From Hanamia sp. (GTDB lineage Bacteria > Bacteroidota > Bacteroidia > Chitinophagales > Chitinophagaceae): 43,538 nucleotides of DNA. A program made the position numbers and the translations under genes. The DNA is taken from positions 1 through 43,538 of the forward strand of contig DATCWN010000146.1 of NCBI GenBank assembly GCA_036566285.1. Direction: 5' to 3'. The notes under the pieces are model-generated. The model saw nothing but the letters and a program-made list of their open reading frames with translations, was not told the DNA's origin and ran no database searches. Below are positions 20,650-26,685 of the stretch, one piece after another (the stretch's first letter is position 1; each line of letters opens with the position of its first letter).

Positions 20650-20937
20650 TTACATGTATTTCACTTCATCGGGTAAATTATAAAAAGTAGGATGGCGATA
20701 GATTTTATCATTAGCAGGGTCAAAAAAACTTCCAGCATCATCAGGGTTAGTAGAGTGAATATTTTTTGATTCCACCACCCAAATACTTATACCTTCCAAA
20801 CGGCGTGTATAAACATCGCGCGCATTTTCAATAGCTGTTTTAGCATCGGCTGCATGGAGGCTACCCACGTGTTTATGATCGAGTCCTTGTTTACTTCTTA
20901 TAAAAACTTCCCAAAGTGGTTCAATTTGGCTCTTCAT
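20650..20937 (-). CDS. paaB: Phenylacetyl-CoA epoxidase subunit PaaB
   Basis: WEVFIRSKQGLDHKHVGSLHA, ARDVYTRR.EG.SIWVV, YRHPTFY. Confidence 0.96.
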   Translation of the reverse strand: MKSQIEPLWEVFIRSKQGLDHKHVGSLHAADAKTAIENARDVYTRRLEGISIWVVESKNIHSTNPDDAGSFFDPANDKIYRHPTFYNLPDEVKYM

Positions 20938-20985
20938 TATTTAGTATGTTTAATTTCTAAGAACATAATTTGCAATATCAATTCT

Positions 20986-21513
20986 TTATTTAGCATCCTC
21001 AATTATTGTATCCTTTTTGAAACCAATTCGCTCTCTTTTAGCAAAATCTTTTTCTTCTTGCTTATCAGATAATAACAAATTTAAAGCTTGAAAAATTTGT
21101 TTGAAATTGCTATTATATTTCTTTTCTAATTTACTTATTTTTTGTCGTAAATCTTTATAGGTTAATGCAAATTCACGAATCAAAACAAAAGTTCTGATGA
21201 TAATTATATTTACTTCAATCGCCTTTTCACTATTAAGAACGCTTGAAAGCATGGCTACTCCCTGTTCAGTAAATGCTGATGGAAGATACCGTGTTCCACC
21301 TTTCTTTGAGGTCGCAATTTGCGACCTCAAACTCTGAAACTCTTTCTGAGTAAGGGTAAACATAAAGTCGGGAGGGAAACGAGAGGCGTTTCTCTTTACG
21401 GCTTCCTTTAGCCTTTTCGTTTCTACTTCATACATTTCAGCAAGGTCAAAATCGAGCATTACATTTTGATCACGAATTTTGTAGATTTTGTTTTGGATAA
21501 CAGTTAATTGCAT
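20986..21513 (-). CDS. ORF6N (KilA-N-like) domain DNA-binding protein
   Basis: IY.IR.Q.VMLDFDLAEMYEVETKRL.EAVKRN..RFP.DFMF.LT..E...LRSQIATS...RY.P.AFTEQGVAMLSSVL.S..A..VNI.I.R.FV; C-terminal coiled coil and R.RIGF. Confidence 0.92.
   Translation of the reverse strand: MQLTVIQNKIYKIRDQNVMLDFDLAEMYEVETKRLKEAVKRNASRFPPDFMFTLTQKEFQSLRSQIATSKKGGTRYLPSAFTEQGVAMLSSVLNSEKAIEVNIIIIRTFVLIREFALTYKDLRQKISKLEKKYNSNFKQIFQALNLLLSDKQEEKDFAKRERIGFKKDTIIEDAK
21305..21331. repeat. 27-bp palindrome within the ORF6N coding sequence
   Basis: tttgaggtcgcaa-t-ttgcgacctcaaa (perfect 13-bp arms). Confidence 0.95.
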
Positions 21514-21600
21514 GGTAGATTCAGAATTTTTTATTTAAAAGATTGCGATTTTTAAATCTTATCTATTCTTGTAGTTTCCCAATTTAATAAAATTCCCAAC

Positions 21601-21750
21601 TTTTCTAAGGTCACAATTTGTTACCTTAGAAAATAAACCGATCTTTTTATACCTGCCTTAAAGTTTTGTTTGAGGTCGCAAATTGCGACCTCAAAGAGTT
21701 GCACCTGGAAAGGGTTTCAGAGTTTGAGGTCGCAATTTGCGACCTCAAAC
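21601..21750. repeat. Array of three palindromes homologous to the ORF6N-internal palindrome
   Basis: 21601-21633 ttttctaaggtcacaa-t-ttgttaccttagaaaa; 21669-21695 tttgaggtcgcaa-a-ttgcgacctcaaa; 21722-21750 gtttgaggtcgcaa-t-ttgcgacctcaaac. Confidence 0.95.
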
Positions 21751-21763
21751 GTTTCTCATTTGT

Positions 21764-22720
21764 TTAAACTGCACTTAAGGCCCCTTTAGGGGTTTGGGGT
21801 TTCTTTTTCTCCGCGTAGGCAAGCGCCGCTGCTCTTACCCAGGCTCCATTTTCGTGAGCACTAACTCTCATGGATAGACGCTCTTTATTGCAAGGGCCAT
21901 TTCCTTTTATCACATCCCAAAATTCGCCCCAATTGATTTCCCCAAAATCATAATGACCTCTTTCTTCATTCCATTTTAAATCCGGGTCGGGAATAGTGAG
22001 TCCCAAAATATCCGCTTGTTCTTTGCAGATGTCAACAAACTTCTGCCGGAGTTCATCATTAGTAAATCTTTTAATTTTCCATTTCATGCTTTGCTGCGTA
22101 TGTGGCGATGCGTCATCATTCGGGCCAAACATCATCAGGCTTGGCCACCACCAACGGTTTAGTGCATCCTGTGCCATTTCTTTTTGTTCTTTGGTGCCAC
22201 GGCAAAGCGTCAATAGTATTTCATATCCCTGCCGCTGATGAAAACTTTCTTCCTTACAAATTCTTACCATCGCCCTTGCATAAGGGGCATACGAAGCGCG
22301 GCAAAGCGGCACCTGGTTCATGATTGCTGCGCCGTCCACCAGCCAGCCGATGGCGCCCATATCGGCCCATGTAAGAGTGGGATAATTAAAAATAGAAGAA
22401 TATTTTGCACGGCCGCTCAACAACTGGTCCGTCATTTCTTCTCGTGAAATATTCAATGTTTCGGCGGCGCAGTATAAATACAGGCCGTGCCCGGCCTCAT
22501 CCTGCACCTTTGCAATTAAGGTTGCTTTTCTTCTTAAAGATGGCGCACGGGTTATCCAATTGGCTTCGGGCAACATGCCTACAATTTCGCTGTGGGCGTG
22601 TTGGCTTATCTGCCTTATCAAAGTTTTACGATAGTCGTCAGGCATCCAATCTTTCGGTTCAATCTTTATTTCATTCGCAATTTTATCGTCAAACGTTTTT
22701 AATAATTCATCTGTTTGCAT
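21764..22720 (-). CDS. paaA: Phenylacetyl-CoA epoxidase catalytic subunit PaaA
   Basis: [44 protein letters not shown] (di-iron ExxH); ATG 22720 preceded by TAACTTTG at 22736-22743. Confidence 0.97.
21781..21799 (-). repeat. REP-like C/G hairpin element inside the paaA 3' end
   Basis: Minus strand reads ccccaaacccctaaagggg, encoding PQTPKG. Confidence 0.55.
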
Positions 22721-22908
22721 AAAAAACTTTATTCTCAAAGTTACTTATTTCAAAAATGGAAAAGCTTTGGATGTAGTTAAATAAAGCAATAATGAAAAGA
22801 CTTTCTTCAGATGGAATTTTGTAAATTAATCCGGATAATTTTTAAGAAGAAAAGCAAAAAGTCTTCTCAGTAATAAAAAAATAAAAGGAGGGATTTTAAT
22901 TTGAAAAA

Positions 22909-26124: not shown

Positions 26125-26685
26125 TCAAACCGCACTCCAGTTTTCTCCCTTTTTAATTCTATAAATGGTCATCTCACTTACCTTATACTTATCCGCAATT
26201 TGTTTGTGAGTAAGCTTTCGGCGCGGATTTGCCAACGCAGTTTTTATACTTTTTACCTGCGTTGCATTTAATTTCAATCCTTTGGTTCTTGATTTTTGTA
26301 CCTTTTTGTATGCCAATCTTTGCGGGTTTTTTTGCTGATGTTCAATCACCTCTTTTTGCGAAACCCATTTTAAATTTTTAGCCTGATTATCGGCCTTATT
26401 GTGGTTGACATGGATAACAAATTTCTGTTTTGGAGAAGTTCTTTTGTTAAACGCTTTAGCTACTTCGCGATGAAAATAAATGGTTCCGTTGTTGCCATCA
26501 ATATGTAGATTTAAAGTTTTGTAACCGGAGGTAAATGAGCCTTGCAACAGCTTTCCATCTGCAAGAATATCTTCTTTGTAACTTGCCGCACGCCCATGAG
26601 AAGAAATGGCGTATTTATTTCTCAAAAGTTTATGGCCCTTAAACTGGAAAGGCTTCCATATTTCACCATTAATTTTTTTGATCAT
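26125..26685 (-). CDS. NUMOD4/HNH-like protein with a C-terminal helix-turn-helix
   Basis: EIWK..Y.ISS.GR (NUMOD4-like); FHREVAKAF..VIHVNHNKADN...NLKWVS (HNH_3-like); KL....VK.IK...QIADKYKVSEMTIYRIK.G.NW HTH. Confidence 0.75.
   Translation of the reverse strand: MIKKINGEIWKPFQFKGHKLLRNKYAISSHGRAASYKEDILADGKLLQGSFTSGYKTLNLHIDGNNGTIYFHREVAKAFNKRTSPKQKFVIHVNHNKADNQAKNLKWVSQKEVIEHQQKNPQRLAYKKVQKSRTKGLKLNATQVKSIKTALANPRRKLTHKQIADKYKVSEMTIYRIKKGENWSAV

Follow-up and report, generated by a model that had tools for sequence, protein, structure and literature searches.

The genome of Hanamia sp. contains an ORF6N gene at the junction of two genes of the phenylacetate operon, and this gene raises the question of why a protein-coding sequence should contain a perfect palindrome, and why further copies of that palindrome should lie immediately upstream. 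The window referred to below is the whole stretch of 43,538 nt that was analysed, and its relevant features are as follows.

21764..22738, minus strand: paaA (PF05138), the host gene upstream of ORF6N
21722..21750: upstream copy U1, a 29-bp palindrome (14-1-14) of predicted cognate type
21668..21697: upstream copy U2, an inverted copy of 21303-21332, of predicted cognate type
21601..21633: upstream copy U3, with 16-bp arms and one unpaired position, predicted to be non-cognate (the type of Q37 proteins)
20986..21513, minus strand: ORF6N gene, 175 aa (PF10543, E 2e-36; PADLOC PDC-S05, E 2.5e-60; mean pLDDT of the model, 80)
21391..21420, minus strand: predicted recognition helix in the model, codons 32-41 (TKRLKEAVKR), in which K33, R34 and E37 change along with the bases of the palindrome
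21305..21331: internal palindrome I (13-1-13), encoding LRSQIATS, of predicted cognate type for K33/E37
20956..20982: decayed downstream copy D (9.5 bits), between the ORF6N stop codon and paaB
20650..20937, minus strand: paaB (PF06243), the host gene downstream of ORF6N

The ORF6N product matches PF10543 over the whole profile length with 124.5 bits (curated cut-off, 27.8), and those homologues that bear names belong to Chitinophagaceae. The gene interrupts the paaA-paaB junction and is surrounded by chromosomal genes. No phage structural or integrase families were found among the 38 window proteins scanned, no recombinase is present near the gene in the window, and a profile search revealed no recognisable effector domain in the protein. 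Two other features of the window were recorded in passing: another short hairpin motif in the final codons of paaA (21778-21800), which occurs 12 times in the genome, as against no occurrence of its reversed control, and lies in a paaA tail common to several relatives, and a free-standing NUMOD4/HNH endonuclease gene (26125-26685) that directly follows the NAD-dependent DNA ligase gene.

The internal palindrome is centred 195 nt into the gene and consists of two perfect 13-bp arms around a single central base. As the sequence-only reading had described, it encodes LRSQIATSK on the coding strand and reads LRSQFATSN on the opposite strand, and U2 is an exact inverted copy of 21303-21332 (30/30). 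U1, which had been called near-identical, proved to match even beyond the palindrome: the segment 21708-21749, flank included, matches the coding stretch in inverted orientation at 40/42 positions, and the flank at 21708-21721 corresponds to the inverted coding flank for K-E-F-Q-S. U2 and U1 share a reading frame on the plus strand and lie at a distance of 54 nt from each other. U3 had been taken for a variant with symmetric substitutions; it does show three symmetric pairs of changes relative to the gene copy, but a further change is one-sided and one position is unpaired. On the coding strand, U3 reads LR*QIVTLE and thus contains a stop. Copy D was found with a weight matrix built from homologues, by which 22 genome positions reach 8 bits, and an alignment places it where relatives that lack the gene have a lone palindrome.

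Only about 0.12 perfect odd palindromes with 13-bp arms are expected by chance in this 3.9-Mb genome. The exact 27-mer of the internal palindrome occurs three times, always at the paaA-paaB locus, and all 12 genome sites scoring at least 20 bits are found within or next to the five ORF6N loci, which are of several types. The confinement of strong sites to these loci speaks against a REP-like family, one of the three options originally raised, in so far as such a family would be dispersed, while a role in local gain and loss is possible. The ORF6N sites do resemble REPs and REPINs in being short palindromes in an intergenic cluster, but they differ in that they are not dispersed through extragenic DNA, in that one copy is coding and in that their sequence tracks a helix of the protein. 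Four of the five ORF6N loci are at most 430 nt away from a contig end, whereas the paaA-paaB locus is located mid-contig; for the latter, an assembly error can be excluded only by indirect means, namely by the similar arrays of other assemblies.

Several other palindromic arrangements were seen in this genome. The second ORF6N locus (L004; G000:C407:8334-8826) follows one half of metH and has two tandem palindromes within the gene and three of mixed type upstream, the third of which lies 105 nt before the start and has the same outer arm as U3 (104 nt). At a contig end, two ORF6N 5' halves face each other with a palindrome between them (L005; G000:C454:5379-5680), which could reflect a genuine fold-back rearrangement or a chimera of the assembly. 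A weak lone palindrome of the ORF6N type directly follows a histidine kinase-like gene, with no ORF6N gene nearby (G000:C253:7550-7576). Both DUF1016_N genes of the genome also contain coding odd palindromes (L338:1742-1768 and L339:1553-1687), three of them in tandem at 54-nt spacing in L339, and a further repeated, REP-like palindrome family with a GTTGCCAACCTT-type arm is present on contigs C88, C90, C146 and C185 of G000.

To place the internal palindrome in its family, we collected 331 loci, which yielded 307 intact ORF6N domains and, after the removal of those more than 90% alike, 234 genes; two of the retrieval scans, unlike the others, used a peptide from the palindrome segment among six patterns, which may bias this sample. 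At least 10 of the 13 base pairs are formed in 229 of the 234 genes, as against 2.6% of synonymous resamples, and at least 11 in 212 genes, as against 0.4%. Palindromy is therefore conserved among homologues at the DNA level. Both arms covary at many positions, including those where the protein changes; seven genes even read the palindrome in another frame (VTNCD rather than RSQIVT), and 10 of the 234 contain tandem internal palindromes. In the wider family, a 17-nt core was found in 46 of 151 genomes (none with the reversed control), and an ORF6N gene lies within 1.5 kb in 26 of the 30 bacterial loci with the core that were fetched. Two arrays from this survey are recorded here as such: five sites with a 128-nt period upstream of an ORF6N gene (L704:1509-2021), and three sites of mixed type in a locus without the gene (L709:1449-1630).

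The palindrome is a DNA element rather than an RNA structure, because arm mismatches show no preference for G-U on the mRNA sense strand (35 G-U versus 66 A-C; 30 versus 27 in non-coding copies, which are balanced). An mRNA hairpin was rejected on these grounds. Rfam returned nothing over threshold and only sub-threshold hairpin matches to miRNA models. The central triplets are balanced in orientation (AAT 85, ATT 68; AAA 16, TTT 18), which fits the inversion of spacers by template switching; according to the available text of PMC8604942, this process makes the arms alike and flips the spacers, and mutation suffices for both. Template switching thus probably maintains the arm symmetry and the Ile/Phe flip, so that the Ile/Phe switch would be a by-product, and symmetry alone is no proof of selection. 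The earlier argument from symmetric changes to selection was, in this respect, too strong.

What template switching does not account for is the relationship between the palindrome and the protein. In the structure model, residues 21-28 and 32-41 form a helix pair and a long helix lies at the C-terminus, while the palindrome-coded residues 62-70 are modelled as a loop with a pLDDT of about 63. We counted residue-base combinations in the 219 genes with a single palindrome, leaving out 10 with two and 5 below threshold. E37 is accompanied by G at ±4 in 129 of 130 arms, Q37 by A in 193 of 198, R37 by C in 84 of 88 and K37 by C in all 18. Residue 34 changes along with residue 37, and the bases at ±4/±5 switch with residues 37/34. 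Similarly, K33 is associated with G on both arms at ±7 in 144 of 148 genes, and R33 with at least one A at ±7 in 50 of 55. Phylogenetically independent pairs change in the same direction in 14/14, 11/11 and 16.8/19 cases on a tree built with the helix and the palindrome segment masked; the number of type changes on this tree, about 80, is rough, because the tree was made by a fast method from about 150 columns. Among close homologues, 62 E/A and 45 Q/V pairs contrast with three crossed ones (E with V or Q with A; 113 of 120 scored). The ORF6N gene at the same paa site in L040, which is 82% identical to that of the window, has switched both helix and palindrome type, and one locus contains four tandem ORF6N genes with near-identical ends and different helix-plus-palindrome cores.

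Two indirect explanations of this code were rejected. The 65 nt between helix and site are not predictive of type (78 of 142 correct, 71.6 at random), so that helix and site do not form one linked block of alleles. Coevolution of two protein segments is contradicted by the seven other-frame genes, several of them related, in which the code is kept on both arms in six and on one arm in the seventh. The simplest explanation, we infer, is that the helix reads the site directly, and the palindrome is very probably the ORF6N protein's own binding site. By this code, I, U1 and U2 would be cognate to the ORF6N protein of the window, and U3 would fit Q37 proteins. The proposal that the copies are putative operators of the protein, with one of them inside its ORF, is thus well supported by the covariation between helix and bases, although no more than 30 of the 56 copies upstream of the gene in relatives belong to the predicted cognate type.

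A sequence search of the PDB with the ORF6N protein gave no match, Foldseek against the PDB gave none at E 0.001, and the best match of a wide fold search reached Z 6.5. In the model, the N-terminal domain weakly resembles pSK1 Par, RacA, KilA-N/APSES and Ski/Dachshund domains (Z 3.9-5.8); its helix pair may correspond to a KilA-N-like helix-turn-helix (Mbp1, weak match, Z 4.8), and clusters in the Atlas are automatically named KilA-N; neither KilA-N (PF04383) nor RhuM families were found in the source genome. The likeness to these proteins would extend to a winged-helix-type domain followed by a long helix. Their sites, such as the pSK1 Par centromere and the RacA ram sites, are not known to lie within coding sequence.

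Two described systems come closer in organisation. In Streptomyces plasmid pIJ101, the palindrome bound by SpdA2, sps, forms part of the gene for this protein and encodes a conserved peptide there, according to the available text of Thoma et al. 2014 (PMC4170104), and the layout of a site within its own gene with copies upstream therefore has a published precedent. A conserved palindrome within the coding region is what we found in 229 of 234 ORF6N genes. As described there, sps occurs in 2-3 copies, and one plasmid has three that lie upstream of the gene instead; it is a nearly invariant, plasmid-borne 12-bp sequence with a mild stability phenotype. The ORF6N site differs from it in its length of 27 bp, its specificity types tied to the helix, its non-cognate copies and the lone copies in viruses, and the gene is a chromosomal interloper between paaA and paaB rather than a plasmid gene beside replication functions. 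BstA is a prophage-encoded, KilA-N-like DNA-binding protein with demonstrated abortive infection, whose cognate DNA element, aba, overlaps its own gene; in the available text of Owen et al. 2021 (PMC8585504), BstA variants have distinct cognate elements, and an element carried by phage DNA is effective even though BstA is missing from that DNA. The covariation of helix and bases would fit a cognate element of this kind, specific to each ORF6N variant. aba is a 63-bp element with terminal direct repeats that spans the start codon, and the word 'palindrome' does not occur in the main text of that paper, whereas the ORF6N site is an inverted repeat well inside its gene, and the 38 window proteins scanned include no phage structural or integrase families. 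The ORF6N system thus lacks some defining traits of both SpdA2/sps and BstA/aba; it is similar to the former in layout and, if its site does serve as a self mark, would be similar to the latter in logic. In the literature searched by listings, with subscription papers outside its scope, no description of the ORF6N palindrome or code was found.

Copies outside the gene are not a constant feature of the family. Among single-gene loci with 400 nt of upstream sequence, 40 of 190 have upstream copies and 150 have none. Extra copies are three times denser upstream (59 in 116 kb) than downstream (19 in 112 kb); in 30 of 56 cases, upstream copies are of the predicted cognate type, as against 18.3 by permutation, and nearly half are not. 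Sites flank the gene on both sides in 3 of 188 loci. The paa site itself provides a series of filled and empty states. For the genus, paaB loci of 71 genomes were returned, and we examined 30 of these, among them that of the window. ORF6N is present at four of these loci (L034, L040, L048 and L059), and L048 and L059 have no flanking site. Four others (L036, L038, L042 and L057) lack the gene and have a lone palindrome, scoring 18-30 bits, that lies 38-51 nt upstream of paaB. Another small gene, presumably encoding a four-helix-bundle protein, occupies the site in two loci and a different ORF in one; three lack paaA upstream in the locus.

Lone sites are also found in viruses. The two main 17-nt cores gave 118 and 88 matches in viral contigs, as against 10 and 6 for the two composition-matched control palindromes used, and the two commonest site types are thus about ten times more frequent there than control palindromes. 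No ORF6N gene is present in 107 of 134 distinct viral contexts, or in 75 of the 88 with 1 kb on both sides; of the 107, 70 lie outside long ORFs, and one of the other 37 lies in a Bro-N gene. When the type positions were left open, 24 of 42 symmetric lone sites among the matches listed belonged to the two commonest ORF6N types, and a third type, with seven sites among those matches, is absent from the ORF6N gene sample. Another binder could explain these lone sites, because 43 of 108 resemble terminator stems (1 of 16 controls) and only two control palindromes were used. Of 40 hand-picked long viral records with a lone site, 39 were searchable, 10 of them near complete, and none contained an ORF6N or Bro-N gene. 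Most have one perfect site; a second main-type site occurs in 2 of the 39, and collections of site types in phages were thus not found. In annotated phage records, no lone site was found, only a match in a Bro-N gene: a Lactococcus phage antirepressor gene (L682:901-923; KX160206.1), which has a 21/23 match to the window palindrome and reads LGSQITTS. L489 is a further Bro-N gene with a site. Viral ribonucleotide reductase genes contain the core in frame in L461, L482, L496 and L530, either by chance or as a coding copy of a mark.

To account for these findings together, we tentatively favour, at somewhat less than an even chance, the explanation that the palindrome is the double-stranded DNA site of an ORF6N dimer, coded in a tolerant loop of the protein itself and used as a self/non-self mark. 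The dimer would read the palindrome through its recognition helix, and any DNA that gains ORF6N would gain the matching site with it, since the site is embedded in the gene. The mark would keep the protein from acting on DNA that carries it. U1 and U2 may add docking or titration, whereas non-cognate copies such as U3 and the lone sites could mark other ORF6N specificities and have outlasted the gain and loss of genes, and viruses without the gene would carry one such site and be treated as self. The weak link in this reading leads from binding to a self/non-self function. The type switching (about 80 changes), the tandem gene array, the viral excess and the PADLOC listing speak for the reading as a whole; the missing effector domain, the 150 of 190 loci without an upstream copy, the single sites of viral records and the weakness of the fold matches speak against it. 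The listing consists of matches to three PDC-S05 models (best E 2.5e-60); PDC-S05 is a phage defence candidate by association only, and neither it nor ORF6N is mentioned in the main text of the PDC preprint (10.1101/2024.01.29.577857). ORF6N neighbours are mostly not defence genes: in 60 of 111 eligible loci, the window's own left out, 2 of 114 neighbouring ORFs, partial ones included, matched defence models other than ORF6N itself (E 1e-20; NCBIfam also used for 61 of the 114). A defence-island context was therefore not found. Most of the neighbours that bear a name are housekeeping genes, for example metH, tyrS, ilvA and secDF, which argues against classic defence.

A less probable, though possible, alternative is autoregulation only, in which ORF6N would bind the internal site and the cognate upstream sites (at distances of 364 and 418 bp from it) and form a roadblock or loop that limits its own expression by read-through out of the host operon, the remaining copies being debris. 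The helix-to-base covariation fits this equally well, the threefold density of copies upstream and the excess of cognate ones (30/56 versus 18.3) agree with it, and PHROG labels the family anti-repressor. It leaves unexplained the switching of specificity, the arrays with different cores, the well-kept non-cognate copies, the lone sites at empty loci and the viral excess. Furthermore, no sigma-70-like promoter was found on the coding strand upstream of ORF6N, nor was TAnnTTTG, the Bacteroidota consensus, found in the spacer.

It is unlikely that the gene is a small mobile cassette that enters and leaves at the palindrome, leaving one copy at empty sites and a pile-up at filled ones. The window gene is indeed flanked on both sides (U1-U3 and D), gene-less paaB loci have their lone site at the same position (4/30), U1 contains an inverted piece of coding flank, and tandem internal copies exist in 10 of 234 genes. 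Against this, both-side flanking is limited to 3 of 188 loci, the filled loci L048 and L059 have no flanking site, no recombinase lies near the gene in the window, and the sites are not dispersed in the genome. Still less probable is a role in DNA maintenance, whereby protein and site would stabilise or position the carrier DNA. This would fit the layout shared with SpdA2/sps (available text of PMC4170104), the modelled long C-terminal helix and the weak fold matches, among them RacA (Z 3.9) and pSK1 Par in complex with its centromere DNA (Z 4.6), but these Z-scores fall within the common-fold range, the gene is single and sits in chromosomal housekeeping operons at many unrelated places, and one genome has five loci of several types.

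We consider it quite improbable that the palindrome is a by-product, namely a chance quasi-palindrome perfected and copied by template switching, or a duplication made during assembly. The evening of arms and inversion of spacers described in the available text of PMC8604942, the balanced centres and the proximity of four of the five loci to contig ends are in line with this, but template switching can neither yield the helix-to-base code nor explain that this code holds in two reading frames, and the window locus is mid-contig, with upstream arrays recurring in independent assemblies. Finally, the least probable explanation is that silent cassettes diversify this segment of the protein by gene conversion. 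Sequence does pass between gene and copies, since the flanks of the copies are still coding-like and near-exact matches to the gene of the same locus outnumber expectation (7 versus 1.2). Against this, U1 and U2 equal the gene's own copy and offer no novelty except Ile/Phe, U3 would mismatch the helix, the expressed segment is not hypervariable (all eight segment-covering members of the protein's 90% cluster read QIAT), mismatches between helix and segment are rare (3/113), and the segment itself, modelled as a loop of low confidence, tolerates a different frame.

The reading of the palindrome as a self mark could be extended, more speculatively and with less likelihood than it has at this locus, to ORF6N genes as a widespread self/non-self system in which every gene would encode its DNA password through a simple code of two or three residues, hosts would collect rival passwords beside the gene and phages would steal single ones, often built into terminators, as a means of escape; Bro-N, DUF1016 and related domains may share the design. 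ORF6N is a very common domain for which we know of no target, and the covariation yields a predicted target and a residue-to-base code; if true, this code would represent a compact natural set of orthogonal protein-DNA pairs. The value of the locus itself lies in the series of filled and empty paaA-paaB sites. If the lone sites in viruses are self marks, they would reveal a layer of defence and counter-defence that consists of DNA sites, not proteins.
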